Source: Patescibacteria group bacterium (GTDB lineage: Bacteria; Patescibacteriota; JAHJAL01). From it: a stretch of DNA of 64,000 bases. The stretch's first letter is position 1, and every line of letters starts with the position of its first letter. The translations under genes were made by a program, and so were the position numbers. Below the pieces are notes generated by a model. The model saw nothing but the letters and a program-made list of their open reading frames with translations, had not been told where the DNA came from and did not search any database. The stretch spans positions 222,132 to 286,131 of the forward strand of contig JBMORM010000009.1 of assembly GCA_049322675.1 (NCBI GenBank). Direction: 5' to 3'. Below, piece after piece: positions 14,686 through 63,346 of this stretch.

Positions 14686-14769
14686 GAAGTATAATGGTAG
14701 GGGAAGAAATTTTTAATTTTTAAATATGTTTTGTTGGACTATCAAGATGAAAAACAAAATAAAATAAAT

Positions 14770-32696: not shown

Positions 32697-32698
32697 TA

Positions 32699-38600: not shown

Positions 38601-41600
38601 CAGGCGATTTTGTCGGTGAGACCAATTATTTCATTGGGCATGAAACAAGCGGTAATTACTTTAAAGGAATGATTGACGAAGTGTCAGTATTTAACAAAAA
38701 TTTGACTCCAGAGGAGATCAAAGCACATGCCCAAAAACGTCCTTACGGAACCTACACTTCCAAAGTATTGGATTTGATAAATAATCCTCAATTAAATAGT
38801 TTAACCTGGGGTGAACTGGGAGTTCAAACCGGTAGTGGTGAAACACCTAAAGATGCCACCGGACTCGTTGCACAGTGGAATTTCAATGAGACCAGTGGAA
38901 CGACCGCCACCAACAATGCCGGTTCTTGTGGAGCGGCTTGCAATGGTACTTTAACAAATATGACAACAAGTGGACAAGATGCATCAGTTAACTCTGGTTG
39001 GACTGCTAATAACAAGAAATGGGGAGCAGGGGCGGCGATGTTCGATGGAAGTGATGATTATATAAATATTGGATCAACAAGTAATCTTGCCGTAACTAAT
39101 TTTTCCTTGGAAACTTGGGTCAAAACAAACACAACCGCACTTAGTGTTATTCTTGGAAAAAAATCAAATAGCACGGGTGGATGGTATGCATATAGATTAG
39201 CGACATATAGTGGAAAAATAAATGTCAGAGTACAACAGTCAGCTACGCCAAGTTTTTTGGATTTGGATTCCAATTTTAGTCAAATAAATAACAACGAATG
39301 GCATCATGTAGTAGTAACTTTTGATAGTGACAATAAAGTCAGAATTTATATTGACGGAAAACTGGATATTACCAGTAGTACCGGAAATGCCATTTATTAT
39401 GCCAATCAAGTTAGTGATTTTATGATTGGAACAGATGTAGATGGTACAAAAAGACTAAATGGTACTATTGACTCAACCAAAATCTATTCCCGCGCCCTTT
39501 CCGCCGACGAAATCCTTTCCAACTATCAGGCCGGCAATATCGAATTGCAAACTCGCAGCGGCGCCACGGCCGACCCCAATGATGGTTCATGGCAAGAATG
39601 GCGACCGGCCGGAAGTGGGACGGAAACAACTTTGGTAAATAACGAGAATGATAGCAGTAATTGGTCCTGGAATTCAGTCGCTGCCTATATGCCCAAATCC
39701 AAGTCTGACGATTCTGTGGTTAGACTAAATGGTAACACCTCAACCAAATTACAAACCGGCATTTTACAATCCGATGCCAACACTATTGCTCTCTGGCATC
39801 TAGACGAAACCGGCGGAGCTGGAGCGTACATCAAAGATAGTAGCGGTAATGGTAATGATGGCACACCAAGTGGAACAACTGTAATTGACGGAATAATTGG
39901 CAAAGCGAGAAGTTTCAATGGGACAAGTGATTATATTCAAAAAACTTCTGTTCCTGCACAATCTATATATTCCTTTGATATGTGGTTTAAACCACAAAAT
40001 ACAATTACCAGTAGTTCGGCCTGTATGACTTTGATGCAAATGCGTACGGGGGCAACTGGAGATTATTTTGCTTTGCAAACCGGGTCTTGTACTTCTTCTT
40101 TAACCAATGAAACTATTACAATTTTTCACGATACTCCTGGCAGAACCGGTGTTTTGAATGTGAATATTTCGAATAGTTGGCATCACATAACCGTAAATTG
40201 GGATAGTAGTATAAATGAATACAGAATATATTTGGATGGAGTTGTTCAAACAACCAATTCAGGCACTGATGGGAAAGCAGCATTTTTCAATGATCCTGAA
40301 AGAATACAAATCGGGGCATATATGTATTCCGGAACCTACTCCTCGTATTTTGCTGGACTAATCGACGAAGTACGTATTTCAAGTGCTGCCCGTACTCCCG
40401 AAGAGATCGCCGAAGCCTATCGAGCCGGCGCCAATCATCACCTCACTCGAGATTTAACTTCCGCTCAAAATCTTTCGAATAATAACAAAATATCTTTCAA
40501 TGTAGCCGCCGACCAACCAGGCACTTATCTACAAACCATGATCGGTGAATCCGCTTTTGCCAACTACGAACCCGACGCCAATACCGTGGGTTTATGGCAT
40601 TTGGAAGAAGCGACCGGATCTGGAGCGTATATAAAAGATAGTTCTAATTCAGGAAATAATGGGACGCCAACCGGAACTACATTTATTGATGGAAAAATTG
40701 GGAAAGGTAGAAGTTTCAATGGCAGTAGTGACTATATTTCAATAAGCAACAATTCCAATTTAAATCTATTAAGTGAAGATTTTGTAATTGATGTCTGGGT
40801 AAAACCTAGTACCGTTACCGGCACTCAGGAAATTATCAGTAAAAGAAATGGCGCCGTGGCCGAAGGATTTGTAATCCGACGAGAATCCGGAGTTTATAAT
40901 TTTTGGGCTACTTCCAATGGTTCGAGTTGGGATATTTCATATGGCAAGTCACTTGGAGCTGCTTCAGCTAATACTTGGTCTTATCTTGTTGTAACCCGAC
41001 AAGGTAACAACTTTTATTTCTATAACAATGGAATACAAACCGATAGCCTAACCTCGAGTGCAGCAATTCAAACAAATACCAGAAATATAAATATAGGAAG
41101 GGATGGTTCAGGACAATATTTTTCCGGTGTTATTGATGAAGTAAGATTAAAAAAAGGTGCAGGTGTTACCGGTGGACAAATTCGTCAAGCCTACGAAGTG
41201 GGCAAGCGCTCGCACAATGTCACGATTGATTTTGCCGCTTCATTGGATAGTGACAACTTGATTATCGATAGCAATGATAAATCATTTACGATCGATGCTA
41301 CTACCAAAGGTTTAAGTTACCCGGCGGAGAATTTGTTCTCCGGTGATAAGATTATTGTCCGCGAAAATTATAATGGTACCGAATATATCGCCCAAGGTAC
41401 CGTCAATGGTGTTGACCAAGATAGCGGCGCTGTCACGGTTAGCTCGTGGGATAGTGGCAGCACATTCCCGAGTGGCGGTTTTACCGTCAATGCTGATGTT
41501 TTCAAATGGCAGACAGAATACATGGATATTAGTCAAATTGCCAATGAAGACAAAGATGCCATGAGCCAAATCTCTTTGCGTTTGACCAATGGTAGTGGCG

Positions 41601-44600
41601 GACGCAATATCTGGCTCGATGATTTTGAATCGATAAACAATTATTTGACTGATCCGACCGGGAGCGCTATTGCCTCCACCAGTAATCAATATTTACAGTA
41701 TCGCGCCATTTTAACATCCAATGACACCTTGCTTACTCCGTCTTTCAACGATATTAGTTTGGATTATTCACCTCAACAATCTTCGACTTTGAGCAGTGTG
41801 TCCTCATCGGCGGCTTATTTAAATAATTTAAATAAAAATAATTTCCCGATTACCTGTCAGGGAGTGACTGCCAGTGAACCGGACTTGACGATCACCTGTC
41901 AGGCATCTTTGAATCAGAGTAATTGGTACGATGTGACCAGTGCGAATAGCCCATTGTCCAATGCCGATCTAACGGGAAATGTGGATTTTGCCGGATGGAC
42001 CGGTTATCCGGAAGCGGACGGAGAATTGACTATTTACGCTAGAACTTCCGACGGCACTTATGCAAGTCAAATAGTAAATTTTGTCGTGAATAAAGATACC
42101 GTCGATCCAGCTATTAACACTATCAACAGTGTCGCCGGTTGGACTACCACGCCTTATTTTGACAATACCGATGATGGTAATACTGAGATCATTTTTGAGA
42201 CTAGCCCCGATACTCATAGTTGCCGCTGGGACGAAAATGATTTGAGTTTTACCGCTATGACCAATACTTGTACCGCGGTTGGGGATTGTCAAATCGATTT
42301 GACCGGTCAAGGAGCTAAAACGGTTTATATCAGCTGTGATGACACGGCCGGAAATATTTTGCACCCTTCACAAACTGTAAATTATACGATCGACAGCATT
42401 GCTCCGACTACCACTCCAACTTGTAGTCCAGCGGATAATACTTATTTCAAAGACAACTTGGCGGTGACTTGTGTCAGTGGTGAAGGTGGAGATTTGGTGC
42501 GATATACTAGCGACGGTACGGATCCGACCATTTCCTCCGATCAATGGTTTAACACCAATATCAACAACACTAGCGATCTCAAATTTATTTCCTGCGACTT
42601 GGCCGGCAACTGTCTGACGACTTTTAGTCAGTATCATTATATTTTGGATAATGTGGCGCCGCCGGCGCCGATCATAAATAATGAACCGCAATACACGGCG
42701 GGGACGACAAACGCAGTTAGTTCCAACACTGTTACCGATACAGGTGTTGGCGGGGTACAATATGAATTTTGCGCTGACAATACTCGATCAATGGATATAA
42801 ATTTGGCTTTAAATAAAACGGCAACAGCTTCGTGGACTTACACCACTCAAACCCCGGCACTCGCGGTCAATAATAACACTAATGATTTTTGGGGATCAGG
42901 TGGTTATCCGCCAGCTTGGATCAGGATCGATTTGGGCAGTAAACAAAATTTTAATCAATTGAAGCTCTTGCCACAAGGTTCGCCGACCGGTACGGTATAT
43001 TATCATATTCAGGGATCAGATGACGGCAACAATTTTACTACTATCATGGCCAACGCCTCAGCCAACACAGCCGGACCGACCTGGTCAACGCATAATTTTT
43101 CGATGCAGTCATATCGTTATGTCAGAATATATTGCAATGATTGGGCCAACTCATGGGTAGGCATTCGAGAAATTGAGATATACAATACCGCTGATCAGCC
43201 TACGGCAAGCTGCATATCGTCAGGCTGGAAAGATGTGTCAAATAATATTTTCGAAAATTTATTGGACAGTACCAAATACTATTATTTTGTTCGATCTAAA
43301 GACGCTTTAAACAATTTATCCGCTTGGAGCGCTTCGGTCAATTCGATTCAGGACAATGTCAAACCGGAAATTACGGGTATAAATTCTGTGGCGGGTGATA
43401 GTTTGGCGCCTTGGGCCGACAAGACTGATGATGGGGAAACGATTGTCAATTTTTCCAGTTCGGCGGATACGGCTGACTGTTTCTGGAATACCGATGACGT
43501 GGCTTACGAGGAGATGGCCAATTTGTGCGCTACTACTTCTGCTTGTACTTTGGACCAAGTCGGAGAAGGAAACCATACTGTCTTTATACGTTGCAGCGAT
43601 ATCGCCGGCAATACGATGGATAGTTCTTTGGTATTAAACTATGCCATTGATACTATTGCCCCGACCACGGCGCCAACGTGTATACCAGCCGACAATACAT
43701 ACTTTTACGATCAATTGGTTGCAGGATGCACGCCTGGTTTTGGCGGAACACTGGTTCGTTATACCAACAATGGAAATACACCGGGAGAGTTGTCCACGAT
43801 TTGGGAAAATGATCAAACGATCAATGCTACTACCACTTTTAAATTAATTTCGTGCGACGATGCCAACAATTGTTTTAATGAACATTCAACATACACATAC
43901 AATAAAGACACTTCTCCACCACCCACACCGGTAATGACGGCGGAACCACAATTGTCGCCCGGAACGACAAATACAGTCACCAGCAATACAGTTAACGACA
44001 CTGGTGTCGGTGGAGTCAATTATCAATTTTGTTTCAGTAATAGCGACTCGACAGAAAATTGTAATAGTTCGGCGTGGTTAACTACCAATTCATACACCTT
44101 TACCAATTTGGCTCATGAGGTAAAATATTATTATTTTGTCCGGAGTAAGGACGCTTTGAATAATACCAGTGTTTGGAGCGGCAGCACGTCGTCAACTCAG
44201 GACAATGTGGCTCCGGCGATTTTGTCGATTGAAAATATCGGTGGGGACGATACTTCACCGTATTTGGATAGTACGGACGATGGAGTAACGGTGGCCAATT
44301 TTATTTCCAGTCCGGATGCGGCTTCGTGTAGATGGGCAACCGTGGATGCAGATTATGATTTGATGGTTCACAATTGCAGCAGCACTGGTAGTTGCACTTT
44401 TAATCTCACCGGCCCTTCGACCAAAATGATATATTTGCGCTGCAAAGATACAGCGGGTAATAAAATGAATTATTCGACATTGATGATGTATGATGTCGAT
44501 ATTATCCCGACTATCAATAGTATTACTTACGTCGAGGATGACGCCAATGCGCCATATTTTGATTTGACAGACAATGGGGAAACGACGATTATCTTTGGCA

Positions 44601-47600
44601 CTTCCAACGATGCGACGGCTTGTCGATGGGATATAGCCGACAGAGAATATAGCCAGATGATCAATAATTGCAGCAGTACAGAAGAATGTACAGTTAATCT
44701 AACAGGACAAGGCGCTAAAACGGTTTATTTGCGTTGCGTTGATAACCAAAATCAATCGACAGTAAATGCTTTTGAAGTAAATTATACGATTGATTCGATC
44801 GCTCCGACGACGGCGCCAACTTGTACACCGGAATCACAAATGTTTGGCGGATCAATATCGGTAAATTGTCTTGCCGGAGAAGGAGGAAACATTATTCGAT
44901 ATTCCAACGATCCCAATGATTTGGTTGATTCATCCTCGAGTGCATGGTCCGATCGGGCCATTACGACAACCACCAATTTACAATTGATTAGTTGTGACGA
45001 GGCCAATAACTGTTTTCTGGAAGCTAGTCAGTACGATTACACCAAGGATGGCACTCCACCCCCTACTCCACTTATGATTACTGAACCAACTTATACGCGA
45101 GGGACTTCCAATACGATTCGTTCACAAACAGTAACCGATGGTGGCATTGGCGGCACGATTGAATATCAATTTGGCTGGAATTTGACCGGAACTGCCGGTA
45201 GCGGAATGACAGTTACAAGCGACTGGACAACAACCTCGGAAGCGATTTTCGGAAATTTGGCCGACAATACATATTATTATTTTGTTCGGGCTAGAGATGT
45301 TTTTGAAAATACAAGCGCGTGGAGTAGTCCGGTAGCTTCGATTCAAGATAATTTGGCGGCGACTTTGACGGAAATCAATTCGGTCGCTGGCGACACAACT
45401 CCCAATGAATGGGGAGACAACACAGATGATGCTTATACGGATGTTATTTACACAGCTGATCCCGATGTTTCTGACTGCAAATGGAGCGAAGAAGATCAAA
45501 CTTATGGAGCCATGCCCAATACCTGCAATAGCGTCAATCGCTGCATTTTGAACCTGACCGGCGAAGGCGAACATAATATATATTTGCGTTGTGCCGACAA
45601 AGCTGGAAATGCTGACGCGGTTTCTTATAATCTACAATATTTTATCGATACCGCGCCGCCGACTGCCAAACCGACATGCACGGCGACCGGAGTGATCGAC
45701 GGATATTTCGCAACAAGTGTAAATGTGACGTGCAGTCCGGGGACGGGAGGAGACGAAGTACGTTATACCACTGACAACACTATCCCCACCTGGCAATCAA
45801 CATTTTGGAATAATCGCAGTTTTAATCAAACAACTACTTTGAAGGCGATTAGTTGCGACTGGGCCAATAATTGTTTTGATGAAGTGGAAACCAACGTATA
45901 TACCCAAGATTTGGTAGCGCCGCCCTTGCCAGTCATGAACGCCGAACCGGCTTATACCGCCGGATTGACCAATCTGGTCAGTGGGACGACGGTAACAGAT
46001 GTTTTGCCGGGCGTTGGTTTGGTGACATATCAATTTAAAATGAAATATTATGATGGCAGCAGTTGGGCGGAATCAGCCACGGCTTGGCTGGACCAACCGG
46101 AATACAACTTTACTGGTTTAACCCATGGTCGCACATACTATTATGCCGTCCGGGCTCGAGATGGTTTAAATAATTTACCGCCGGACAACGCTTGGAGTAG
46201 CGAAGTTTCTTCTACGCAGGACAATAATTATCCGATGGTAACCGGAGTCAATTATGTAGTCGAAGATTACGATTTGCCTTATGTTGATGAGACGGATGAT
46301 AGCAACACTTATATCGAATACACTACTAGTGATTCACCAGTGACTTGCCGATGGAGTGATACCAATGAGAGTTATGGCGACATGGAAAATACTTGCGAGA
46401 ATACGAGCGGATGCACATTGACCTTGAATAATATTGGTGACAAAACAGTTTATATGCGTTGTACTGACGCAGCTAATAATCAGTCACCCACGTCATATCG
46501 TCTGGATTATCGCGTGGATCCCAATGGCGATGGCCGTCCGCCCCAAATTACCACTATCAATACCGTGGCCGGTGATAATACTAGTCCGTATTTTGATCAA
46601 ACAGACAATAGTCAAACTCTGGTGGAATATACCGCGACGACTGATGCCACCACTTGTCACTGGGGAACGGTCGAAGGAACATATAATGATTTGCCCAACA
46701 CTTGTACGAGTGTCAGTAATTGTAATTTGAATTTGGCTGGCAATGGTACCAAAACTATATATATGCGCTGTATCGATGGTGCCGGCAATAGACAGCGCAG
46801 TTCACGATTATTGGTTTATACTATTGATTCCTTACCGCCGACGGTCAATCTGGTGAGTGTGGCCGGCGACACGTTTGCTCCGTATTATGACACATCGGAT
46901 GACAATAACACGGTTATAAATATTAATAGTAATGATAATTTGACCGGAGTGCAAAACTGCCGCTGGGACGAAAATGACCAAAGTTATGGAGCGATGGCGA
47001 ATAATTGTGAAAATAATAATCAATGTAATTTTTCGACATACGAAGGAGAAAGTAATCACACGGGTTATATTCGTTGTACAGACAATATTGGTAATGCGAT
47101 GAGTAGTTCACAGACGGTTACTTTTGGTATTGACCAAACAGAACCGACGGTCAATAGTATCGTTGACGTGGCCGGAGATACCAGTACTCCGTATTATGAT
47201 CGAAGCAATAACACTGATACGGTGATTAATTTTAATTCATCAGACAATTTTTCCGGGGTGGCTGATTGCCGCTGGTCAACTACTGATATCGGTTATGACA
47301 ATATGTATTCGGGTGGCGAACCTGCTTATTATCGTAACTGCTCGACGAGCAGTTGCGCAGTGGGAAGTGATTACATTTACAATTCTTTCTGGGGTGAGGG
47401 CAATCATACAGTTTACTTGCGTTGTATTGATATTGCCGGCAATCGTACCTCAACCTCCTATCCAGTCAATTTGACAATCGATTCCATACCGCCAACCGTC
47501 AATTCAATAATTAGCGTAGAAAATGATCTGACAGCACCGTATTTTGATTATACTGACAATGCTTTGACAGAAATAAAATATAGCGCCAGCGATAATGCGC

Positions 47601-50600
47601 TGGGTATTGCCGGTTGTCGCTGGGATACAAATAATGTCAATTATGAAGTTATGGGACAAGACTGTGATATCAATGATGCTACTTGTGACATCAATGAGTC
47701 TGGTCAGGGTTGGCATAATGTTTTTCTCAAATGTATTGATCTGGCCGGAAATACCAATAGTTATAATACTTATGAATACAATGGCAATTTTGATGAAACA
47801 ATATTGGTTCCAGCCCTGCGAGCCAATTACTATATCGATACTTCAGCTTCCAATATCATAATTGATTCCGTAAATGGGCGGACCGATACTCAACATTATG
47901 ACGACAATACTGATGATGGGCAGACGGTGATCAATTTTCACAATGTTACCGCCTTGGACAGTAATACGGCAGCGGAAGATATTGCCGAATGTAAATGGGA
48001 TAGCGAGGACAAAACATATACAGAAATGACCCAGGTTTGTGCTTCGACTACTAGTTGCGTCAGTAATCTAACCGGGGAAGGAAACAAAACAATATTTATA
48101 CGCTGCAAGGATAATCAAGATAATATGACCGCCAGCAAACAAGTTGATTACAAAATTGACCTGACTCAACCACAGATAACCAATTTGATATCAGTAGCAG
48201 GTGATACGACAGTGCCATATTATGACACCAAACCGGATGACTTTTACTCTCAAGATTCTTGGCACAATCTATCAACAGCGATTTTTACAACTTCCGATAA
48301 TTTGGCCGGGGTCCAGACTTGTCGTTGGGATACAAGTGATAAAAATTATGACACGATGAGCAACGAATGTAATTCGGCCAGCAGTTGCGCAGTCAATATT
48401 GCCGATCAGGGCGTGCACAACGTATATGTCCGCTGCCGTGACTGGGCGGGGAATCCAATGAGTTCATCACTGAATTATGAATATACATACGATGTTCAGG
48501 GACCAACGATCAGTTTAAATGTCGTGGAAAATGATATGACTTTGCCATATTTTGACTATACCGACAACGGAAATACGGCGATTGATTTTGCAGTTGATGA
48601 TAATGTTTTGGGAGTAGCCGGTTGTAAATGGGATCACAACACAAGTAATTACAATTTGATGACTTACACTTGCGCCAATTTGGGATTGTGTATTTTTGAC
48701 ACAATGGGCGAAGAAGAACAGACGAATTATATTTCTTGTATCGACGAAGGTGGAAACGCTTCCAGTCAAACAGTAAATTATTGGATTGACACTCGCCCAC
48801 CGATAATTACCAGTATTACTTCGGTCGCTGGTGACACAACAGCCAATGATTACAATGACAATACTGACAATAGAGATACTTTGGTGATTTTTAATACCTT
48901 GGCTGAAGATACAGCTGAATGTAAATGGAGCCAAAATAATCTAGCCTACGATAGTATGAGTAATGTTTGCGAAGGAGCTGATCGCTGTCGTCTAAATTTG
49001 ACGGGCGACGGGGAAAAGACAGTTTATCTACGATGCAAAGATCAGCAAAATAAAAAAGCGATTGCGCCCTATGTTTTGTCTTACAATATTGATACCACAC
49101 CGCCAAACATAACTAGTATTACTCATGTGGCTTCGGATTATTCCGCTCCCTATTTTGATCCCAACATGGATTTTATAACTCCGATTAGTTTTTCATCTTA
49201 TGACAATGTTTCAGGAATCGAATCTTGCCAGTATCATATGGGTGATGCATTTTACAAATATAGTTGCGACAACAACAATCTGTGTACTGTCAGAGAATTT
49301 ACCGGTATTTCCAATCGTTATGGCAGTCATACGGCTTATATCAAATGCAAAGACTACGCTCAAAACGAGATGGTGGATTATTATCCGGTAAATTACACGA
49401 CAGATTATTACGGTCCGGATATCGACTTGATTAGTATCGCCGAGGACACTACAGCCCCATATTATGACACCTCCGATGATGGAAATACAGTGGTAAGGAT
49501 TGAAACCAGCGACTTGGCGGGGGCGACAGCTTGCCGGTGGGGTATCAATCCCGATCCAGTCCACTTGTTGGATTACAAGCCAAACTACAGTCAGTTGGAT
49601 AATATTTGCGAATCAACCGAACAATGCACTTTGTATTTGATGGGACAAGGAACGAAAACTATTTATATGCGGTGCATAGATAGCTTGGGTAATCAGACTA
49701 GTAGCAATGATAGTGAAAATCGGCCGTTTGTTTTTAATTACACCATTGATAGTTCAGCCGACGGGACTCCGCCGCGAATTAGCAAAATCAATTCAGTAGC
49801 CGGAGACACAACCGCAGTTTATTACGATAATTCCGACAATCAGGATACGGTGATCAGTTATCAAGTGGACGCTGATACCAATAACTGTAAATGGGATGTA
49901 GCAAATTTGAGTTATGACAATTTGGCCAATATTTGCGAAAGCACCAATACATGCAATTTGAATTTGGCGGGAGAAGGAGCGAAGAAAGTATATTTCAAAT
50001 GTATAGATAACGCCGGCAATAAAACTATTAATCCATATATTTTGCGTTACACGATCGACATCACCGCTCCCACTGTTTTAGATATAGTTACTATTGCCAG
50101 TGACCCCAATAATCCATATTTTGACAATACCGACGACGAACAAACTTTATTGCTTTACCACGCCAGTAGCGATACGGCGACCTGCAAATGGAGCACCAAC
50201 AACCAATCATATGCCGCCATGCCCAATACTTGCGCCTCAACCGAACAATGCAATTTTAACCTAAGTGGTTGGGGAGAAAAAAATGTCTTTATGCGCTGTA
50301 TAGACCATGCCGGCAATATTGGCTTATCTTCATACGCTATTAGTTATACTTTGGATGCCGGCGCCGATGGTACGCCGCCGATAATCCAATCCATTGATTC
50401 GGTTGCGGGTGATGAAACGCCAACTTATTATGACAGTAGCGACGATAGCAATACCGAGGTTTTATTTACTGCTTCACCCGACTCCACTCAATGTAAATGG
50501 AATACACTGGATGTCCCTTATGAACAAATGCAAAACTTCTGTGAATCAACCGGACAATGTATTCTCAATGTGAGCGGGCGCGGAGCAAAGACCGTGTTTA

Positions 50601-52021
50601 TAAAATGTATGGATGATGCCGGCAATATGGCGGTCAATTCGTATGTCTTGAATTATATTATTGAGACTATGACGCCGAGAATAACGGCAGTAACGGCGGT
50701 GGCCGGCGATATGAATTATGTTTATGTGGACCCGACCGATGACGGACAAACTTTGGTGGAATATGAAACTACAGAGGGGACAACTGAATGTAAATGGGAT
50801 GTTTTGGATACAAATTACGATAACATGAATAATACCTGTCAAAATACGGAAAGATGCTTACTGAATCTAATCGGGGGCGGCAGTCAAAAGGTTTATATGA
50901 GGTGCAAAAATGCGGCCAATATGAAGTCAGATACATCTTTTAAATTGAATTACGAAATCGGGCAACCGGCAACTGATGAAAATCACTCATCAATTACCGC
51001 CCAAATAAAGGATTCTATCCCCCGCCATCCCAACACGGTAACGGTTTACTATAATCCTGCTTTTGAAAACGCAGTCAGTGACGGATCAATTAAATTAATT
51101 TTGTCAGATGAATTTGATTTATCAGGTATAACCAAAGATGATGTCATGGCTTTGGGTGGAGGGGTGGAATGGGTTAACAACGAAGTAATAACCGCAGCGG
51201 GGGAACAGATTGCCAGGAATGAAACATTGTGGGATAAATTGGCCAAGATGATAGCTCAACCACAAAATGCTCAAGCGGATGGAGAAAATTCAATCATCTT
51301 TCCATATGTTGGCGACTTGGACGGAGACAATAGTGATTTGCAATTTATTATTGGCAATGCCAATAAAATAATAAATCCGTTCACGGCCGGCACTTATCAC
51401 GTAACACTAGAAGTCAGAGATGAAGCCGGGGAAGTGATCGAGACATTGGAGGCGATGATCGCGATTAGCGAAGAGGTAAATGTAACCGCGAGTATACCGT
51501 CGATATTAACTTTTTCGATCAATCCAGTGGATAGCGGCGAGGCGGTCAATAATAATATAACTAACCAGCCGACTTTAACATCAGATAGTGTCAATTTTGG
51601 CGTTTTCCAAGCGGCTGATGACCGAATCGCTGCTCATGATTTGAACGTTTCTACCAACGCCGCCAATGGTTATATAGTGACAACACAGTACACTGGGGCT
51701 ATGACCGGTAACGCCGGTATGATGGCAGATTTCATTGGCACCAATTTGAACCCGCAAACATGGTCAAATCCGACCGGTTTGGGTGTGGAGAGTTATTTTG
51801 GATATACAACCACTGACTTTTCTTTGTCGCAAGTTCCAACAGACCGTTTTGCGAGCAATAACTGGGCGGCATTTTCTGTCATTCCTGCCGAAGTTGCTTC
51901 CAATAATCAATCAGTAAATGAAGAAATTACCAGAATCGGTTACCGGTTGCAAATCACCGACAAACAACCAGCCGGGGTTTACAACACGTCAGTTACATAT
52001 ATTTGCACTTCGATTTATTGA
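32699..52021 (+). CDS. Giant secreted multidomain protein 5 (about 6440 aa). Domains in order: signal peptide; conserved N-terminal module; about 9 LamG/ConA-like modules; four cycles of four-Cys, CHB_HEX_C-like and FN3-like modules with one F5/8 discoidin insert; about 15 further tandem four-Cys modules; conserved C-terminal module. Its start overlaps the stop of gene 4.
   Basis: ATG lies at 32699 and 32702. The ORF track opens at TTG 32693, which forms a TTGA overlap with the TGA stop of gene 4 (32694-32696). The N-terminus MMKKIKTKNERWFDRILTSTALIFCYGLSLISTVTA is signal-like. The C-terminus …SVTYICTSIY precedes a TGA stop. Confidence 0.9.
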   Translation: MMKKIKTKNERWFDRILTSTALIFCYGLSLISTVTANEDSDWMATSWGSNFNYQYQDENFVASVGDKLTDTPDTITLQVKNPEPGESWWEKWQTEDYKTMTLTLLDGEQITNDPTDQSMSDAEDKAQELEEQRSSLLNKVGSWIDLDPSSELYKTDDDQLMNQNVIDDVDSEYTIWPDYGIKENLIVKGTNGQATNTFYYQLKLDEGIEYFSTDDGNPFNLPENTYYFVDQKGNYLAHFLPILVYDSNHNLTNQVNLEINPTSDEQILMVKVQVDYAWMIDSDRQYPIIIDPTIVHNTNTDFGNGRAIDRMSLNDNILSNAEMPTATDSSVVGLWHMDEESGTSVNDYSGNNITGTSVNTTVEDGKFGKAKYFNNINTYVQIPASSAFNFGTNDWTFETWIKPSSFEACDTIYSQNNPYTILRFDCERGGSYWEIYNNGVQYDLPAHGMVAGNWYHVAVVRSNNFVYLYQNGNLLSFVSVGSNSTNLSGAIWRIGNSTWNGEYFHGDIDEFVVRNRSLTPEQVKLEAQKKSYGLYDSSVLDLGSDFSKYDKISWEEQGVQTGNGETPYSTEGLVTQWNFNETSGTTAYNNAGSCEGTCNATLSNMTTTSQDAAPNSGWTANNKRWGGGGLMFDGSNDFISISHNSNFNLTSSWTVETWIKRTGPTTTNSDGSIWKFIVRKGTYNTFGLLYDPTSGKVYSNIYNGSAWKNSTSQSVLDIGQWHHIVGVYEGNDSGTLKIFFDGVLENTTTGVGTPSTNTDPLSIIGTSNISSVSTYWPAILDSTRIYSRALAGDEILSNYQAGNIELQTRSGETADPDDGSWENWKPAGSGTETTLDNSDNLYQYNTTDSGLVSYWPMDELTDSSVEDVKGTNNGTATGTKIIDGKFGKARSFNGTTSDYISIPHSADLDFERTSTFSISSWFKSNTTGYESIVSKTDSAYKGWTLFKLANSDPNRPNSVCLILTNVNATSDMFACTPANSISAGNTYHIAMTYAGNSDASGVKIYFNGISQTVTSFRNNLTGSIQNSSPTLIGKHAYAGGNYYLNGWMDELRIYNIVLSSSQVTNQYNEGINALGQTAVQNKSSQNIKAEGTASQKISTGVPLVDANTVALWHLDETGGTGAYIKDSSGNGNNGTPTGTTSVVDGISGKARNFNGTVNDYISIPSSTSLNISSNITIEAWLFRNAAGIQRIVTKTVGNGAANNPYDFGIYTDDKLYFVRASSTTPQSFFSTNTVPVNSWSHVAVTVNNNALSFYVNGIASGTGTFTITPTTNSNPVLIGTRNDGGIFNGKIDEVRVSNIARSADEIAEAYRMGREHRITHLLDTNIDLSNNSKLPFYIAADKPGNYLQTTIGESAFANNEPDTNTVGLWHLEEATGSGAYIKDSSSYSNNGTPAAKTIFDGKIGKAVYGANISMSNEANFRFERTQPFSISGWIKIATLSSGRGYQNIFAKMLGTSPYTGYHLLVADGADSAVTGAGILRFGLINTWTTNTLLIQTNNRVDDSQWHYVVATYDGTSSASGAKIYIDGALVPTTTKYNSLTASIVNSSASPYISTSSYGGVDEVRIDKVVRTADEIRQAYEIGKRTHSVTIDFAAGLDSGNLISNNSDQSFTIDATNKGLSQKGSNLFVGEKVIVRENYDGTEYIAQGLVNSVDVSTGAIDVTSWDSNSTFPSIGFSVNADVFKWQREYWDLTGIMDNQIDSANRLTIRLADGAEGRNVWFDDFKTVGSYLSDPTGSLLNSTSNRYLQYRVMSSTTDTKVAPSLSSVTIKRPPTIDEDNESILAINEGLNRCKITSDPLIKLKNMEPANDPYLVGHWKMNETNGSTVADSSGNGNNGTATGTSIADGVMDKARVFNGSSDFVSIANQVLKQTPNLSFEAWFKQNSTSTYQNIIWATPAGPGSGIALNVDRRVIFQLDLVTGDYRAYQTNTNAYELNTWNHVVGTYSNGIFKIFLNGNEQIISLAGGTGSGDFVGETNYFIGHETSGNYFKGMIDEVSVFNKNLTPEEIKAHAQKRPYGTYTSKVLDLINNPQLNSLTWGELGVQTGSGETPKDATGLVAQWNFNETSGTTATNNAGSCGAACNGTLTNMTTSGQDASVNSGWTANNKKWGAGAAMFDGSDDYINIGSTSNLAVTNFSLETWVKTNTTALSVILGKKSNSTGGWYAYRLATYSGKINVRVQQSATPSFLDLDSNFSQINNNEWHHVVVTFDSDNKVRIYIDGKLDITSSTGNAIYYANQVSDFMIGTDVDGTKRLNGTIDSTKIYSRALSADEILSNYQAGNIELQTRSGATADPNDGSWQEWRPAGSGTETTLVNNENDSSNWSWNSVAAYMPKSKSDDSVVRLNGNTSTKLQTGILQSDANTIALWHLDETGGAGAYIKDSSGNGNDGTPSGTTVIDGIIGKARSFNGTSDYIQKTSVPAQSIYSFDMWFKPQNTITSSSACMTLMQMRTGATGDYFALQTGSCTSSLTNETITIFHDTPGRTGVLNVNISNSWHHITVNWDSSINEYRIYLDGVVQTTNSGTDGKAAFFNDPERIQIGAYMYSGTYSSYFAGLIDEVRISSAARTPEEIAEAYRAGANHHLTRDLTSAQNLSNNNKISFNVAADQPGTYLQTMIGESAFANYEPDANTVGLWHLEEATGSGAYIKDSSNSGNNGTPTGTTFIDGKIGKGRSFNGSSDYISISNNSNLNLLSEDFVIDVWVKPSTVTGTQEIISKRNGAVAEGFVIRRESGVYNFWATSNGSSWDISYGKSLGAASANTWSYLVVTRQGNNFYFYNNGIQTDSLTSSAAIQTNTRNINIGRDGSGQYFSGVIDEVRLKKGAGVTGGQIRQAYEVGKRSHNVTIDFAASLDSDNLIIDSNDKSFTIDATTKGLSYPAENLFSGDKIIVRENYNGTEYIAQGTVNGVDQDSGAVTVSSWDSGSTFPSGGFTVNADVFKWQTEYMDISQIANEDKDAMSQISLRLTNGSGGRNIWLDDFESINNYLTDPTGSAIASTSNQYLQYRAILTSNDTLLTPSFNDISLDYSPQQSSTLSSVSSSAAYLNNLNKNNFPITCQGVTASEPDLTITCQASLNQSNWYDVTSANSPLSNADLTGNVDFAGWTGYPEADGELTIYARTSDGTYASQIVNFVVNKDTVDPAINTINSVAGWTTTPYFDNTDDGNTEIIFETSPDTHSCRWDENDLSFTAMTNTCTAVGDCQIDLTGQGAKTVYISCDDTAGNILHPSQTVNYTIDSIAPTTTPTCSPADNTYFKDNLAVTCVSGEGGDLVRYTSDGTDPTISSDQWFNTNINNTSDLKFISCDLAGNCLTTFSQYHYILDNVAPPAPIINNEPQYTAGTTNAVSSNTVTDTGVGGVQYEFCADNTRSMDINLALNKTATASWTYTTQTPALAVNNNTNDFWGSGGYPPAWIRIDLGSKQNFNQLKLLPQGSPTGTVYYHIQGSDDGNNFTTIMANASANTAGPTWSTHNFSMQSYRYVRIYCNDWANSWVGIREIEIYNTADQPTASCISSGWKDVSNNIFENLLDSTKYYYFVRSKDALNNLSAWSASVNSIQDNVKPEITGINSVAGDSLAPWADKTDDGETIVNFSSSADTADCFWNTDDVAYEEMANLCATTSACTLDQVGEGNHTVFIRCSDIAGNTMDSSLVLNYAIDTIAPTTAPTCIPADNTYFYDQLVAGCTPGFGGTLVRYTNNGNTPGELSTIWENDQTINATTTFKLISCDDANNCFNEHSTYTYNKDTSPPPTPVMTAEPQLSPGTTNTVTSNTVNDTGVGGVNYQFCFSNSDSTENCNSSAWLTTNSYTFTNLAHEVKYYYFVRSKDALNNTSVWSGSTSSTQDNVAPAILSIENIGGDDTSPYLDSTDDGVTVANFISSPDAASCRWATVDADYDLMVHNCSSTGSCTFNLTGPSTKMIYLRCKDTAGNKMNYSTLMMYDVDIIPTINSITYVEDDANAPYFDLTDNGETTIIFGTSNDATACRWDIADREYSQMINNCSSTEECTVNLTGQGAKTVYLRCVDNQNQSTVNAFEVNYTIDSIAPTTAPTCTPESQMFGGSISVNCLAGEGGNIIRYSNDPNDLVDSSSSAWSDRAITTTTNLQLISCDEANNCFLEASQYDYTKDGTPPPTPLMITEPTYTRGTSNTIRSQTVTDGGIGGTIEYQFGWNLTGTAGSGMTVTSDWTTTSEAIFGNLADNTYYYFVRARDVFENTSAWSSPVASIQDNLAATLTEINSVAGDTTPNEWGDNTDDAYTDVIYTADPDVSDCKWSEEDQTYGAMPNTCNSVNRCILNLTGEGEHNIYLRCADKAGNADAVSYNLQYFIDTAPPTAKPTCTATGVIDGYFATSVNVTCSPGTGGDEVRYTTDNTIPTWQSTFWNNRSFNQTTTLKAISCDWANNCFDEVETNVYTQDLVAPPLPVMNAEPAYTAGLTNLVSGTTVTDVLPGVGLVTYQFKMKYYDGSSWAESATAWLDQPEYNFTGLTHGRTYYYAVRARDGLNNLPPDNAWSSEVSSTQDNNYPMVTGVNYVVEDYDLPYVDETDDSNTYIEYTTSDSPVTCRWSDTNESYGDMENTCENTSGCTLTLNNIGDKTVYMRCTDAANNQSPTSYRLDYRVDPNGDGRPPQITTINTVAGDNTSPYFDQTDNSQTLVEYTATTDATTCHWGTVEGTYNDLPNTCTSVSNCNLNLAGNGTKTIYMRCIDGAGNRQRSSRLLVYTIDSLPPTVNLVSVAGDTFAPYYDTSDDNNTVININSNDNLTGVQNCRWDENDQSYGAMANNCENNNQCNFSTYEGESNHTGYIRCTDNIGNAMSSSQTVTFGIDQTEPTVNSIVDVAGDTSTPYYDRSNNTDTVINFNSSDNFSGVADCRWSTTDIGYDNMYSGGEPAYYRNCSTSSCAVGSDYIYNSFWGEGNHTVYLRCIDIAGNRTSTSYPVNLTIDSIPPTVNSIISVENDLTAPYFDYTDNALTEIKYSASDNALGIAGCRWDTNNVNYEVMGQDCDINDATCDINESGQGWHNVFLKCIDLAGNTNSYNTYEYNGNFDETILVPALRANYYIDTSASNIIIDSVNGRTDTQHYDDNTDDGQTVINFHNVTALDSNTAAEDIAECKWDSEDKTYTEMTQVCASTTSCVSNLTGEGNKTIFIRCKDNQDNMTASKQVDYKIDLTQPQITNLISVAGDTTVPYYDTKPDDFYSQDSWHNLSTAIFTTSDNLAGVQTCRWDTSDKNYDTMSNECNSASSCAVNIADQGVHNVYVRCRDWAGNPMSSSLNYEYTYDVQGPTISLNVVENDMTLPYFDYTDNGNTAIDFAVDDNVLGVAGCKWDHNTSNYNLMTYTCANLGLCIFDTMGEEEQTNYISCIDEGGNASSQTVNYWIDTRPPIITSITSVAGDTTANDYNDNTDNRDTLVIFNTLAEDTAECKWSQNNLAYDSMSNVCEGADRCRLNLTGDGEKTVYLRCKDQQNKKAIAPYVLSYNIDTTPPNITSITHVASDYSAPYFDPNMDFITPISFSSYDNVSGIESCQYHMGDAFYKYSCDNNNLCTVREFTGISNRYGSHTAYIKCKDYAQNEMVDYYPVNYTTDYYGPDIDLISIAEDTTAPYYDTSDDGNTVVRIETSDLAGATACRWGINPDPVHLLDYKPNYSQLDNICESTEQCTLYLMGQGTKTIYMRCIDSLGNQTSSNDSENRPFVFNYTIDSSADGTPPRISKINSVAGDTTAVYYDNSDNQDTVISYQVDADTNNCKWDVANLSYDNLANICESTNTCNLNLAGEGAKKVYFKCIDNAGNKTINPYILRYTIDITAPTVLDIVTIASDPNNPYFDNTDDEQTLLLYHASSDTATCKWSTNNQSYAAMPNTCASTEQCNFNLSGWGEKNVFMRCIDHAGNIGLSSYAISYTLDAGADGTPPIIQSIDSVAGDETPTYYDSSDDSNTEVLFTASPDSTQCKWNTLDVPYEQMQNFCESTGQCILNVSGRGAKTVFIKCMDDAGNMAVNSYVLNYIIETMTPRITAVTAVAGDMNYVYVDPTDDGQTLVEYETTEGTTECKWDVLDTNYDNMNNTCQNTERCLLNLIGGGSQKVYMRCKNAANMKSDTSFKLNYEIGQPATDENHSSITAQIKDSIPRHPNTVTVYYNPAFENAVSDGSIKLILSDEFDLSGITKDDVMALGGGVEWVNNEVITAAGEQIARNETLWDKLAKMIAQPQNAQADGENSIIFPYVGDLDGDNSDLQFIIGNANKIINPFTAGTYHVTLEVRDEAGEVIETLEAMIAISEEVNVTASIPSILTFSINPVDSGEAVNNNITNQPTLTSDSVNFGVFQAADDRIAAHDLNVSTNAANGYIVTTQYTGAMTGNAGMMADFIGTNLNPQTWSNPTGLGVESYFGYTTTDFSLSQVPTDRFASNNWAAFSVIPAEVASNNQSVNEEITRIGYRLQITDKQPAGVYNTSVTYICTSIY
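42090..46230 (+). repeat. Four tandem cycles of three module types in giant gene 5. A is a four-Cys module of about 100 aa (…SVAGDTT.PY.D.TDD..T…YT.S.DA..C.W…D..Y..M.N.C.S…C.L.L.G.G.K.VY.RC.D.AGN). B is a CHB_HEX_C-like module (IAPTTAPTC.P…..VRYT.DG..P……KAISCD.ANNCF). C is an FN3-like module (…YYYFVR.KDALNN.S.WS).
   Basis: The A modules start near 42090, 43370, 44210/44510 and 45360. The B modules start near 42400, 43660, 44800 and 45650. The C modules start near 42650, 43900, 45050 and 45900. Confidence 0.6.
42812..43185 (+). other. F5/8 type C (discoidin) domain inserted inside the first FN3-like module of giant protein 5.
   Basis: NKTATASWTYTTQTPALAVNNNTNDFWGSGGYPPAWIRIDLGSKQNFNQLKLLPQGSPTGTVYYHIQGSDDGNNFTTIMANAS……YRYVRIYCNDWANSWVGIREIEIY fits the discoidin pattern …A.A.DG…T.W………WI.vDLG….i..V.l………y.i..S.DG..Wt…. 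Confidence 0.55.
46230..50950 (+). repeat. In-frame tandem array of about 15 copies of the four-Cys A module in giant gene 5, with a period of about 300-330 nt.
   Basis: Copies start near 46240, 46540, 46850, 47150, 47500, 47850, 48180, 48510, 48810, 49110, 49430, 49790, 50080, 50390 and 50690. Each ends …(V/I)Y(M/L/I)RC.D.AGN…… Y.ID. with conserved C.W, NTC, C.LNL and RC cysteines. Nucleotide identity between copies is only moderate, so the array is old or under diversifying selection. Confidence 0.7.
51030..52021 (+). other. Conserved bipartite C-terminal module of about 330 aa (beta-sandwich-like domain plus a terminal domain of about 170 aa). The same module is found at 13775-14685 (gene 2), 20815-21681 (gene 3), 31775-32696 (gene 4) and, for the terminal half only, at about 4213-4633 (gene 1). 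It is a candidate surface-anchoring or sorting module.
   Basis: The shared pattern is L.F.INPV..G…NG..TN……FG…..DDRIAAHDL..STNA.NGY.V…………DF.G.N..P..W..P.G….YFGYTT.D..L…..RFA…W..F…..EV……TTR.GYRLQI…..GVY…V.YI.TS.Y-stop. All five proteins end in a [TS].Y tripeptide. Confidence 0.6.
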
Positions 52022-53731: not shown

Positions 53732-53750
53732 ATGCCAAGTGAAGGAGTGT

Positions 53751-54866
53751 ATGTTGCAGGATTATTTTAGTTCGGAAAAAAAAGATGAAGCATTTGTTGA
53801 TTCGGAAGATTATTTATCCAAATTAACTGATTACTTGGATCGAGAAAGAGAAAGCGTCGGTCTAGAAAAAAGGTTTGGGCTTGAGTTGTTCAAGCCGTGC
53901 AAAGAGATATTTTTGTTGGATTCCAATGATACTACTCAGGATTTTTTTCGGGATGTACAGGATCAATTTTCCAAACAGGTTGAGGTAAAAATATTTAGTC
54001 ATAAGGACGATTTTTTTGATGAATTGAATAGGCGAGTTGTTTTACCTTCTCACATATTTTTTTCTTCTCGTCACAGCGACCGAGAATATGATTCTGAGTT
54101 TCTAGCAGAATTTTTGCTTGAGTTGAGGGATCATTTTCGCGGTATGGAAAAACAAGGGTTAAAAAATGAAGATCGGCCGGAAATAATTTTTCTAAGTTCA
54201 GTAAAAGAAATTAGACAAGATGTAATACAAGAAAATCATGACGACATTGTTGACCATGTTATGTCAAAAGATTTTAGTTCAATCTGGCTAGCAGTCGAGA
54301 AATCAGGGAAAATCGAAGAAATCAGGGAAAATATCGATAAACTAGCTTTTGCCAGGGGTGGAGAGAAACTATCAGAAGGGCGTGACAATCTTGAAGAAAT
54401 AAATGACTTGAATGTGATTTATATTGACGATGATCACGATGTATTGAGTTCTTTGGAAAGATGCGGCGTCACGCGTAGCGATGAAATCGGTGAGGCAAAT
54501 TGCGTCGGATTTGATAGAGGGATAGACGCTTACAATTATTTTAAAAAAATAAAAGAAAGATTAAATGGTGGATTTTCCAGCAAGAAGTTTTTTATTATAC
54601 TTGATGGCAATCTAAAAAAGGACAAAAAATTGAAAAGTGGCGATTTGTTTTTTAACGAATTAAAAAAATTACTCAAAGACGACATTGACAATATTACTTT
54701 TATAGCAAATAGTGGCGACACCACCTGGAATATTCAGATGAAATACCAACATGGTTTTTTGAACAGCAAGAGGGGCATGCCAAAAGATGTGATGGGTTCT
54801 TTTGATTTGATTGTGGAAGAGATGGAGAAGTCAAAAAATGGTGGTAAAGACAGAGATTTGCTATAG
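53751..54866 (+). CDS. Acidic orphan protein (about 371 aa). The C-terminal half looks like a CheY-like receiver (REC) domain and the N-terminal half may be a second degenerate REC-like domain. There is no output domain.
   Basis: ATG 53751 is preceded by GAAGGAG (53741-53747); the ORF track opens at GTG 53739. REC landmarks occur in order in aa about 225-360: NVIYIDDDHDVL (acidic pair), FFIILDGNL (phospho-acceptor Asp position), ITFIANSGDTT (Ser/Thr position) and FLNSKRGMPKD (Lys position). Terminators lie on both sides. Confidence 0.45.
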   Translation: MLQDYFSSEKKDEAFVDSEDYLSKLTDYLDRERESVGLEKRFGLELFKPCKEIFLLDSNDTTQDFFRDVQDQFSKQVEVKIFSHKDDFFDELNRRVVLPSHIFFSSRHSDREYDSEFLAEFLLELRDHFRGMEKQGLKNEDRPEIIFLSSVKEIRQDVIQENHDDIVDHVMSKDFSSIWLAVEKSGKIEEIRENIDKLAFARGGEKLSEGRDNLEEINDLNVIYIDDDHDVLSSLERCGVTRSDEIGEANCVGFDRGIDAYNYFKKIKERLNGGFSSKKFFIILDGNLKKDKKLKSGDLFFNELKKLLKDDIDNITFIANSGDTTWNIQMKYQHGFLNSKRGMPKDVMGSFDLIVEEMEKSKNGGKDRDLL

Positions 54867-59075: not shown

Positions 59076-59126
59076 TGAGACAAAATATTTTTATAATACA
59101 GGGGGGTAAATATTTTTTATTAATTT

Positions 59127-59975: not shown

Positions 59976-59982
59976 TAATCGG

Positions 59983-60849: not shown

Positions 60850-60859
60850 AAGAAAATAT

Positions 60860-61447: not shown

Positions 61448-61456
61448 GTTGAGAGA

Positions 61457-62632: not shown

Positions 62633-62651
62633 GGGGGAAGTTGTGTTAAAT

Positions 62652-63251: not shown

Positions 63252-63266
63252 ATTAACAATTTATAA

Positions 63267-63343
63267 TTTTCAATTTTTAATTTTCAAATGGAAAAAGCAG
63301 TAAATTTAATATTTTTTTTAAATTTGCTTAGAAATTGGAAATT
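63267..63343. repeat. Second, degenerate copy of the TTTCCAA/TTGGAAA heptamer element, lying in the wzm to Ham1-like intergenic region.
   Basis: TTTTCAA TTTTTAA TTTTCAA ATGGAAA lie at 63267-63294 and TTAGAAA TTGGAAA at 63328-63341. The 13-mer GAAATTGGAAATT (63331-63343) is identical to 4734-4746. The arrangement on the + strand is the same as in the first copy at 4638-4747. Confidence 0.5.
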
Positions 63344-63346
63344 CTT

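Follow-up and report, generated by a model that had tools for sequence, protein, structure and literature searches.

The giant gene 5 of an uncultured Patescibacteria bacterium encodes a protein in which 20 copies of a four-cysteine Ig-like module, 15 of them contiguous, are found between a LamG-rich N-terminal region and a C-terminal region homologous to Pam pilins. With a probability of roughly 0.65, the modules form a disulfide-stapled Ig rod joining a LamG/F5-8C head to a Pam-pilin-like base in a secreted giant protein. Members of the Patescibacteria are epibionts of very small size that mostly have not been cultured, and little is understood of their attachment to the host. The locus suggests the existence of three-part giant surface proteins consisting of a fast-evolving lectin-like head, a length-conserved Ig rod with predicted disulfide staples and a base homologous to Pam pilins.

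Layout of the giant protein and its module copies

The window, i.e., the whole stretch of DNA that was analysed, comprises 64 kb. An iterated HMM seeded with one module recovered 27 copies in it (per-domain E-values between 1e-27 and 1e-40), of which 20 lie in gene 5 (15 contiguous and five upstream); genes 4 and 2 contain five and two copies, respectively. The modules, all identified by the iterated HMM, and the remaining parts of gene 5 are located as follows:

32693..52021, + strand: giant gene 5, a single ORF of 6442 aa
32810..42094, + strand: LamG-rich N-terminal region of gene 5, with nine Laminin_G_3 stretches
42095..45649, + strand: five dispersed four-Cys modules of gene 5 (42095-42394, 43352-43651, 44201-44500, 44501-44794, 45347-45649)
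46220..50962, + strand: contiguous array of 15 four-Cys Ig-like modules of gene 5
46220, 46529, 46826, 47132, 47480, 47837, 48158, 48491, + strand: starts of array modules 1-8
48788, 49091, 49403, 49760, 50057, 50366, 50663, + strand: starts of array modules 9-15
50981..52018, + strand: Pam-pilin-like C-terminal region of gene 5 (aa 6097-6442), immediately following the array
28083..28382, + strand: isolated four-Cys module of gene 4
30519..31721, + strand: four tandem four-Cys modules of gene 4, directly abutting its Pam-pilin-like C-terminus
9625..9933, + strand: four-Cys module 1 of gene 2
10252..10554, + strand: four-Cys module 2 of gene 2

A preceding sequence-only reading had proposed 15-20 tandem copies in gene 5 at 46230-50950, and its counts and positions for genes 2, 4 and 5 all agree with the profile search within about 20 nt. 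The module is approximately 100 aa long, and each of the 27 copies contains exactly four Cys, with a spacing of 16-6-16 in 21 of them. The Cys and GDTT motifs noted before are likewise recovered in the consensus, D...P.I..I.SVAGD.T.PY.D.TDD..T...(12)...C.W...D..Y..M.N.C.ST..C.LNL.G.G.KTVY.RC.D.AGN....SY...Y.ID. A corresponding codon-level DNA pattern (C-x-W / Y / C / C / G / C-x-D) matched 17 times in the window and not at all in 100 shuffles. The amino acid identity between copies is 39.5% on average and ranges from 25 to 55%.

At its N-terminus, the gene 5 protein carries a hydrophobic signal- or anchor-like segment (MKKIKTKNERWFDRILTSTALIFCYGLSLISTVTANE), and one of the ATGs at 32699 and 32702 is probably the true start. 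The product is most likely a surface or secreted giant protein. Its fastest-evolving part is the LamG-rich region, which shows 59.8% identity and many indels in comparison to the ortholog P0001; the lectin-like LamG/F5-8C head probably binds the host or a substrate. Further downstream, an F5/8 type C domain (42821-43174), CHB_HEX_C_1 and Fn3-like segments alternate with the five dispersed modules. Within the contiguous array the modules are packed head-to-tail, with linkers of 0-3 residues at the junctions and a single exception of 16 aa. Fifteen such domains almost without linker, together with the five interleaved ones, would be expected to yield a stiff rod of fixed length, which probably serves as a spacer between the head and the C-terminal module. 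As an Ig-like domain usually measures 4-5 nm in length, the 15-module part might extend over roughly 60-70 nm.

Fold, cysteine pairing and family placement

The AlphaFold2 model of the module is a seven-strand beta-sandwich with a pLDDT of 97.4, and all its Foldseek matches in the PDB are Ig-like stalk or adhesin domains (e.g., SiiE BIg, PKD, SraP and intimin) at TM scores of 0.5-0.64. The pairing of the cysteines was addressed by their co-occurrence in 568 modules from 134 proteins, with counts uncorrected for shared ancestry. On this basis, C1 and C4 were both present in 550 modules, both missing in 14 and present singly in only four, while for C2 and C3 the respective uncorrected numbers were 306, 245 and 17. 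All other Cys pairs were uncorrelated across the 568 modules. This retention or loss of C1 with C4 and of C2 with C3 implies two disulfides, so that each module probably contains a predicted long-range bond between the strands at residues 40-46 and 73-83 (C1-C4) and a predicted short staple between cysteines six residues apart (C2-C3). That these bonds actually form is suggested by the co-variation, and the natural pairwise loss of cysteines provides a clean and testable disulfide map. In addition, the conserved residues D1/D16/D23/D26-27/D83/N87 might constitute a possible Ca2+ site. Together with the near-linkerless packing, the model, its fold matches and the joint loss of Cys pairs bear out the earlier proposal of a disulfide-stabilised Ig-like stalk module.

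Disulfides of this type could also serve a mechanical purpose. In a rather improbable alternative to a purely rigid rod, the modules would act as shock absorbers that partially unfold under load while the disulfides limit their extension, comparable to disulfide-containing Ig domains of titin or to isopeptide-locked pilins of Gram-positive bacteria. Given a long-range bond between C1 and C4, extension would spare about 38 of 100 residues, the paired cysteines are strictly conserved, and attachment under shear appears plausible for an epibiont-type organism. However, such behaviour would be compatible with the stalk model rather than exclusive of it.

With regard to its family, the module most likely belongs to the Big_13 / OmpL47-type Ig-like domains of bacteria as a remote branch with two predicted disulfides, and its fold is not new. 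An Ig-like beta-sandwich of this lineage would have gained two disulfide bonds. The Pfam model Big_13 (PF19077) reached 18.3 bits on the C-terminal half of gene 5, i.e., below its gathering threshold of 27, and gave weak matches to seven of the 27 single modules (best E 4e-4). When the module alignment was compared by hhalign to 39 Big_13 repeats of P0026, the probability was 94.3% (E 1e-7), with the aligned part restricted to columns 60-100 of 100. A transitive link comes from relatives with a single C..C disulfide that the module profile retrieved, since they exceed the Big_13 threshold with 74-83 bits over overlapping residues. The seven-strand model, its BIg, PKD and SiiE matches and the 15 contiguous copies also correspond to Big_13 in fold and tandem arrangement. 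The OmpL47-type model NF047446 reached 99.7 bits in sum over aa 3001-6442 of gene 5 (cut-off 40); in the best stretch, positions 3-67 of the 68-position model align end to end with module residues ~26-100. On gene 4 its total was 29.9 bits, under the cut-off, and none of the individual copies reached the cut-off, with 11 of 27 matching at E<10 (best E 3.2e-7).

Both Big_13 domains and the module are beta-sandwiches of ~85-100 aa that occur in long tandem arrays, and they share the C-terminal pattern G.G...V.v...D.AGN....l.f.vD as well as the D...P junction. In contrast to Big_13, the module has four invariant Cys, an N-terminal third of its own (SVAGDTT.PY.D.TDD) and a C1-C2 segment of 16 residues that includes Y..M.N.C and has no counterpart in usual Big_13 repeats, e.g., those of P0026. 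The NF047446 model, for its part, lacks the Cys pattern and the first 25 residues of the module. A cadherin or Ig-set identity was rejected, as no such family was among the Pfam matches even at E<=10 and the resemblance is one of generic fold only. The same applies to HYR, for which no model matched and whose Cys positions presumably differ from those of the module, where a Cys precedes D.AGN. The previous statement that the family could not be recognised therefore holds insofar as single modules match no Pfam or NCBIfam model at its cut-off and a PDB sequence-profile search with the module yielded no relatives, but the summed NF047446 score and the links to Big_13 place the module, most likely, on a distant branch of an already known family of bacterial Ig-like domains.

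A word-index homology search with the 27-module alignment yielded no result at E<=1e-5, which reflects a limitation of the word index, since exhaustive HMMER searches with the module then found 1,550 cluster representatives at E<=1e-3, including ordinary Big_13 proteins matched via the C-terminal 40 columns. At least one four-Cys module was present in 74 of the best 150 of these 1,550 matches. The module-bearing proteins belong mainly to CPR bacteria, but also to DPANN archaea and Nitrospirota. A literature search found no description of the four-Cys module, which has no dedicated curated model; a profile of its own would improve the annotation of 'hypothetical' giants.

Conservation of the array

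No other part of the gene 5 protein is as well conserved as the array. The ortholog P0001, which is 70% identical overall, contains the same 20 modules in strict 1:1 order, and over the array the two proteins are 84.8% identical with no indels. Nucleotide identity between the copies in the window averages 50% with a maximum of 60%, near-identical stretches shared by copies do not exceed about 20 nt (90% identity), and Tandem Repeats Finder run over the window did not detect the array at the DNA level. The module copies are old. The sequence-only reading had regarded the gene 5 array as a substrate for unequal recombination, and had named a match to a bacterial Ig domain with no length variation among strains as evidence against its claims; this is largely what was found.

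It is consequently very improbable that the array is a contingency locus in which unequal recombination alters stalk length or antigenicity between strains: copies with at most 60% of their bases in common, no detectable DNA-level repeat and an ortholog of identical module number and order all speak against it. The idea holds for the module family in general, given recent duplications in some relatives. A homolog of gene 4, P0002, has nine modules, apparently by repeated duplication of a two-module block, a Falkowbacteria locus contains 298-bp copies that are 95% identical as well as an array of 15.6 copies at 73%, and a further locus (L015) has 5.7 copies at 64%.

When gene 5 and P0001 are compared module by module, corresponding modules are 83% identical, whereas non-corresponding ones are 38% identical. 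This high conservation of each module could equally reflect module-specific binding surfaces, as would be expected if the modules had position-specific jobs. Instead of a passive spacer, the array would then be a multivalent binding array in which every module offers its own ligand surface, e.g., for glycans of the host cell wall or for proteins, and gains avidity. Ligand binding is known for Ig-like domains of MSCRAMM and SraP-type adhesins, which are among the fold matches, and the upstream copies are interleaved with CHB_HEX_C and F5/8C domains of carbohydrate-binding type. Nevertheless, we consider this reading unlikely. The residues common to the copies and the family are those of the core, the Cys, and acidic residues in loops of a kind usually seen at structural sites; the domains with a clear lectin-like character (LamG, F5/8C) are located elsewhere in the protein; and no pocket or binding motif was identified in the modules.

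Pilin-like C-termini and comparison with known systems

In the proposed stalk, the rod would connect the head to a C-terminal module that is homologous to whole Pam pilins and is also found at the ends of three further giant genes:

13702..14682, + strand: Pam-pilin-like C-terminal region of gene 2 (aa 2978-3304)
20665..21678, + strand: Pam-pilin-like C-terminal region of gene 3 (aa 1979-2316), a gene without four-Cys module
31680..32693, + strand: Pam-pilin-like C-terminal region of gene 4 (aa 3287-3624)

The model NF058581 (CPR_Pam_pilin_C) matches over its full length at the extreme C-terminus of genes 2-5, with scores of 23.5, 17.2, 21.9 and 36.6 bits, respectively, all below the cut-off of 55. 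A profile built from the C-termini of the giant proteins retrieves the bona fide Pam pilins P0168-P0171 (E 5e-9 to 9e-5), which themselves reach 132-176 bits on NF058581, and hhalign aligns both groups over 213 columns up to the last residue (98.4% probability, E 4e-15). Judged by these profile comparisons, the ~340-aa ends of genes 2-5 are homologous to the newly described Pam pilins of CPR bacteria. The same architecture was found in 12 other giant proteins. The model of the gene 5 C-terminal region is of moderate quality (pLDDT 67), its matches to chaperone-usher subunits have TM scores of only ~0.2, and a PDB sequence-profile search with this region yielded only insignificant matches to the CfaA chaperone (E about 0.3). 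The C-terminus of gene 1 could not be shown to be Pam-like (hhalign probability 5%), with only its last 18 residues (G.Y...T..Y) resembling genes 2-5.

Downstream of the giant genes lie genes for iPGM, glycosyltransferases and an ABC transporter, and the gene 2 protein has an identical counterpart, MFZ5391908.1, in a Patescibacteria group MAG. Pam chaperone genes of the PamC/PamD type, pam operon genes and an ATP synthase neighbourhood were absent from the window, outside of which the region upstream of gene 1 lies; the genuine Pam pilin P0171 adjoins ATP synthase genes. Gene 7 (53739-54866) encodes an acidic, apparently cytoplasmic protein without family match. As it shows no sign of a chaperone either, it was rejected as a pilus chaperone.

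Through donor-strand complementation, the C-terminal module would probably attach the giant protein to the surface of the cell or to a pilus of the Pam type; the pilin-like base offers a concrete hypothesis for the anchoring of giant proteins. More tentatively, and with doubt prevailing, genes 2-5 might encode 'mega-pilins', i.e., complete Pam-type modules (NTD-like end, donor linker, acceptor CTD) with N-terminal extensions of 2,000-6,100 residues that would be built into, or attached onto, the Pam pili of CPR bacteria through donor-strand exchange, with disulfide-stapled Ig arrays as ~60-nm side arms or tip fibrils showing LamG lectin heads to the host cell. If true, this would be an undescribed display of giant adhesins in bacteria without outer membrane, and the four-Cys module would be a shaft element typical of CPR/DPANN.

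The Pam pilins PamA and PamB of CPR bacteria are 350-500 aa long (Troman et al., 2026, bioRxiv 10.64898/2026.03.03.709456). Their homology to the C-termini of genes 2-5 covers the NTD end, the linker and the CTD and continues to the final residue. Both groups occur in CPR hosts, have a signal-like segment at the N-terminus and share the theme of paired cysteines. In contrast to Pam pilins, genes 2-5 carry the large additional region ahead of the pilin module. The terms giant, LamG and adhesin are not mentioned by Troman et al. (2026), and a literature search found no description of giant Pam-pilin fusions.

Regarding the rod itself, the closest counterparts are the SiiE-type BIg stalks of RTX and related adhesins, with SiiE being among the best fold matches; region II of MpIBP is presumably a comparable BIg stalk stiffened by Ca2+. 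Like the gene 5 array, SiiE-type stalks are built from Ig-like domains in tandem whose junctions carry conserved acidic residues; they act as extenders between anchor and ligand-binding domains, a role that the array probably shares. However, these stalks rely on Ca2+, contain no Cys and often have repeats that are nearly identical at the DNA level, whereas the gene 5 copies are only ~40% identical and are predicted to be stapled by disulfides.

Module inventory of the giant genes

Five giant ORFs (genes 1 to 5) follow one another on the plus strand. Their tight same-strand packing, with gaps of 45-140 nt, looks like that of an operon; the TTG listed as the gene 5 start codon lies in a 4-nt overlap with the gene 4 stop (32693-32696), and the true start is likely an ATG at 32699 or 32702 (MMKKIK...).

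Giant ORFs, module copies (iterated HMM) and one further domain
5-4633, +, gene 1 ORF, 5′ end cut off by the window
4771-14685, +, gene 2 ORF
9625-9933, +, gene 2, first of two modules
10252-10554, +, gene 2, second of two modules
14731-21681, +, gene 3 ORF
21822-32696, +, gene 4 ORF
28083-28382, +, gene 4, single module
30519-31721, +, gene 4, four modules in tandem (gene total five)
32693-52021, +, gene 5 ORF, 6442 aa
42095-45649, +, gene 5, five modules outside the contiguous array
42821-43174, +, gene 5, F5/8 type C domain
46220-50962, +, gene 5, contiguous 15-module array

An HMM seeded with a single ~100-aa module and iterated to convergence found 27 copies in the window (domain E-values 1e-27 to 1e-40), 20 of them, including the 15 contiguous ones, in gene 5; the positions and counts of the sequence-only reading agree with these almost exactly. 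Linkers at most module junctions measure 0-3 residues. Every copy contains exactly four cysteines (C1 to C4), spaced 16-6-16 in 21 of the 27, and modules hold 80 of the 116 cysteines of gene 5. All or nearly all copies agree in the columns D1, D16, D23, T30, C43, W45, Y52, C59, C65, G71, C81 and D83, and a codon pattern derived from conserved residues matched 17 times in the window vs 0 times in shuffles.

Between 42095 and 46219, 5′ of the contiguous array, gene 5 modules alternate with Cys-containing CHB_HEX_C_1 domains (e.g., 45701-45865) and an Fn3-like segment (YYYFVR.KD...N.S.WS), forming a repeated three-domain supermodule. Gene 4 encodes an Lcl C-terminal domain at aa 1497-1580 (43 bits). 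It also gives a partial match to TafC family fimbrial protein (NCBIfam), which scores 162.7 bits, well short of the cut-off of 410, and overlaps a LamG domain.

Age and stability of the array

Copies share on average 39.5% of their protein sequence (range 25-55%) and 50% of their DNA (maximum 60%), the longest near-identical DNA stretch being ~20 nt at 90% identity. Tandem Repeats Finder, proposed by the sequence-only reading and run on the window, detected no array at the DNA level. That reading had also regarded the array as a substrate for copy-number variation by unequal recombination, which would make it a locus of recombinational variation. Comparison with P0001, a full-length gene 5 ortholog of 6399 aa (69.8% identity, one HSP), contradicts this for the gene 5 array: P0001 likewise has 20 modules, the best match of every gene 5 module is its positional counterpart (mean identity 83% on the diagonal, 38% off it), and the array aligns without gaps.

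Regions of gene 5 compared with P0001
LamG-rich N-terminal region: 59.8% identity, 131 gap positions
Mixed region with dispersed modules: 78.9% identity, 1 gap position
15-module array: 84.8% identity, 0 gap positions
C-terminal region: 74.9% identity, 0 gap positions

By these figures, the array is the most constrained, length-invariant part of gene 5, which fits a structural spacer and speaks against ongoing unequal recombination here. The gradient, from the LamG half with ~60% identity and many indels (44% at aa 1001-1500) to the array with 85% and none, suggests a conserved shaft that bears a quickly evolving binding head.

Among more distant relatives, module number differs. The four tandem modules of gene 4 correspond 1:1 to those of P0008, whereas P0002, a gene 4 homolog, and P0003 have nine modules each; in P0002 these appear to result from re-duplication of a two-module block. 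On the Falkowbacteria contig CAVZGV010000006.1 (locus L010, 4-657 and 1376-6070), 298-bp module copies occur at 95% identity, and 15.6 copies at 73%; locus L015 (1489-3187) contains 5.7 copies at 64%. These arrays are much younger than that of the window. On the same Falkowbacteria contig, the P0005 cluster is broken up into several ORFs of 227-2128 aa; frameshifts in that array, or faults in its assembly, may be the cause. Module expansion does occur in the family, and the window array is its old outcome, now frozen.

Pam-pilin-like C-termini and a model of the giant proteins

The last ~340 aa of genes 2 to 5 are homologous to one another.

Pam-pilin-like C-terminal regions
13702-14682, +, gene 2
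20665-21678, +, gene 3
31680-32693, +, gene 4
50981-52018, +, gene 5

All four match the full length of NCBIfam NF058581 (CPR_Pam_pilin_C) up to the stop codon, at sub-threshold scores (17-37 bits vs 55). When run against 5.8 billion sequences, their profile retrieved free-standing exported proteins of 352-399 aa (E 5e-9 to 9e-5), which score 132-176 bits on NF058581; one of these pilins adjoins the ATP synthase operon in a Saccharibacteria genome, the context reported for the pam operon (Troman et al., 2026, bioRxiv 10.64898/2026.03.03.709456). Profile-profile alignment (hhalign) with bona fide Pam pilins gave 98.4% probability (E 4e-15) over 213 columns, which begin at the end of the N-terminal domain and extend across the linker as far as the final residue. 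The region occurs in 12 of the best 150 module-bearing proteins, in all 12 at the terminus, and in genes 4 and 5 the four-Cys array immediately adjoins it. Its AF2 model is of moderate quality (pLDDT 67), the best PDB matches including chaperone-usher subunits (Saf, CsuE, PapG, CfaB) and TasA at low TM-scores. The C-terminus of gene 1 (3884-4630) shares the terminal motif G.Y.....V..T..Y stop; apart from this motif, no Pam likeness was detectable by hhalign (probability 5%).

The best-supported reading of gene 5-type proteins starts from an N-terminal signal or anchor segment, visible directly in the sequence, which would be followed by a lectin-like head that evolves fast and comprises LamG, F5/8C and CHB_HEX_C domains, a rod of fixed length made of disulfide-stapled Ig modules, and a pilin-like base. 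The rod would presumably be rigid and ~60-70 nm long, its conserved acidic residues could bind Ca2+, and the base might dock by donor-strand exchange. Three rivals remain, namely that the modules form a multivalent binding array, a mechanically extensible element or a locus of recombinational variation, the last being contradicted for this array. On its own the module is of moderate interest; the link to Pam-pilin-like termini raises it. The words giant, LamG and adhesin are absent from the Pam pilus preprint (Troman et al., 2026).

Downstream, a mostly minus-strand cluster for glycan synthesis and export (55186-64000) encodes a 1000-aa fused GT1/GT2 glycosyltransferase, methyltransferases, a second GT2, a Wzt-type ABC ATPase with Wzt_C domain and an ABC-2 permease. 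The cluster may serve to glycosylate surface structures; a modification on Ser356 has been reported for the pilin PamA. An apparently cytoplasmic, acidic 375-aa protein (53739-54866) matched no Pfam family and gave only a spurious NCBIfam match.

Distribution, fold and kinship of the module

Searched exhaustively with HMMER, 1.84 billion cluster representatives yielded 1,550 proteins at E<=1e-3, 58 of them at E<=1e-30. Carriers within Patescibacteria include Falkowbacteria, Magasanikbacteria, Parcubacteria, Staskawiczbacteria, Peribacteria and Saccharibacteria. The gene 2 protein has an identical counterpart, MFZ5391908.1, on a 373,927-bp contig of a Patescibacteria group MAG, and is also found in the Logan assembly of SRR32167788. 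Outside this phylum, Nitrospirota (P0011, a Kelch-repeat protein of 1919 aa) and DPANN archaea carry the module, the latter in giant proteins of Woesearchaeota (P0017, 6033 aa, C..C type) and Diapherotrites (P0024, 6710 aa, CCCC), which raises the question of CPR-DPANN transfer in common habitats. Across 185,579 species-representative genomes, the strict codon pattern matched 25 DNA stretches, mostly from Patescibacteria.

The AlphaFold2 model from the 27-copy alignment is all-beta with seven strands (pLDDT 97.4). Foldseek retrieved only generic Ig-like stalk/adhesin domains from the PDB (SiiE BIg, PKD, SraP, intimin D00-D0; best E 2.8e-3, TM-scores 0.5-0.64), which makes the fold class clear, though none of these is a close relative; a search of the PDB with the module sequence profile returned no relatives either. 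Among 568 module matches in the best 150 of the 1,550 proteins (raw counts, kinship ignored), C1 and C4 were both present in 550, both absent in 14 and single in 4, and C2 and C3 both present in 306, both absent in 245 and single in 17, with no correlation in cross-combinations. The commonest variants are CCCC (296 modules), C..C (~240 modules in 55 proteins) and.CC. (6 proteins). This pairwise presence or absence is good comparative evidence for putative C1-C4 and C2-C3 disulfides.

Single modules reached no Pfam cut-off, Big_13 being the sole recurrent weak match (7 of 27 copies, best E 4e-4). NCBIfam NF047446 (OmpL47-type domain) matches 11 of the 27 copies individually (best 3.2e-7) and, summed over gene 5, reaches 99.7 bits vs a cut-off of 40, the best stretch spanning the whole 68-position model. 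Through its last 40 columns, the module profile also retrieves classical Big_13 proteins such as P0026 (450 bits on Big_13), and hhalign of the module alignment against the 39 Big_13 repeats of P0026 gave 94% probability (E 1e-7), in columns 60-100 only. The module profile further retrieves one-disulfide (C..C) relatives that exceed the Big_13 threshold (74-83 bits), and in these the residues matched by the two models overlap. The NF047446, hhalign and C..C matches place the module as a probable remote two-disulfide branch of the Big_13/OmpL47-type bacterial Ig-like lineage. The Ig-like, disulfide-stabilised character proposed by the sequence-only reading is backed by the fold model and the cysteine pairing, whereas its recombination proposal fell for the gene 5 array; the family it did not recognise is probably a two-disulfide subfamily of a known bacterial Ig-like repeat, though one without a curated model of its own. 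From the Big_13/OmpL47-type lineage, the module differs in having its own N-terminal third and two predicted disulfides.
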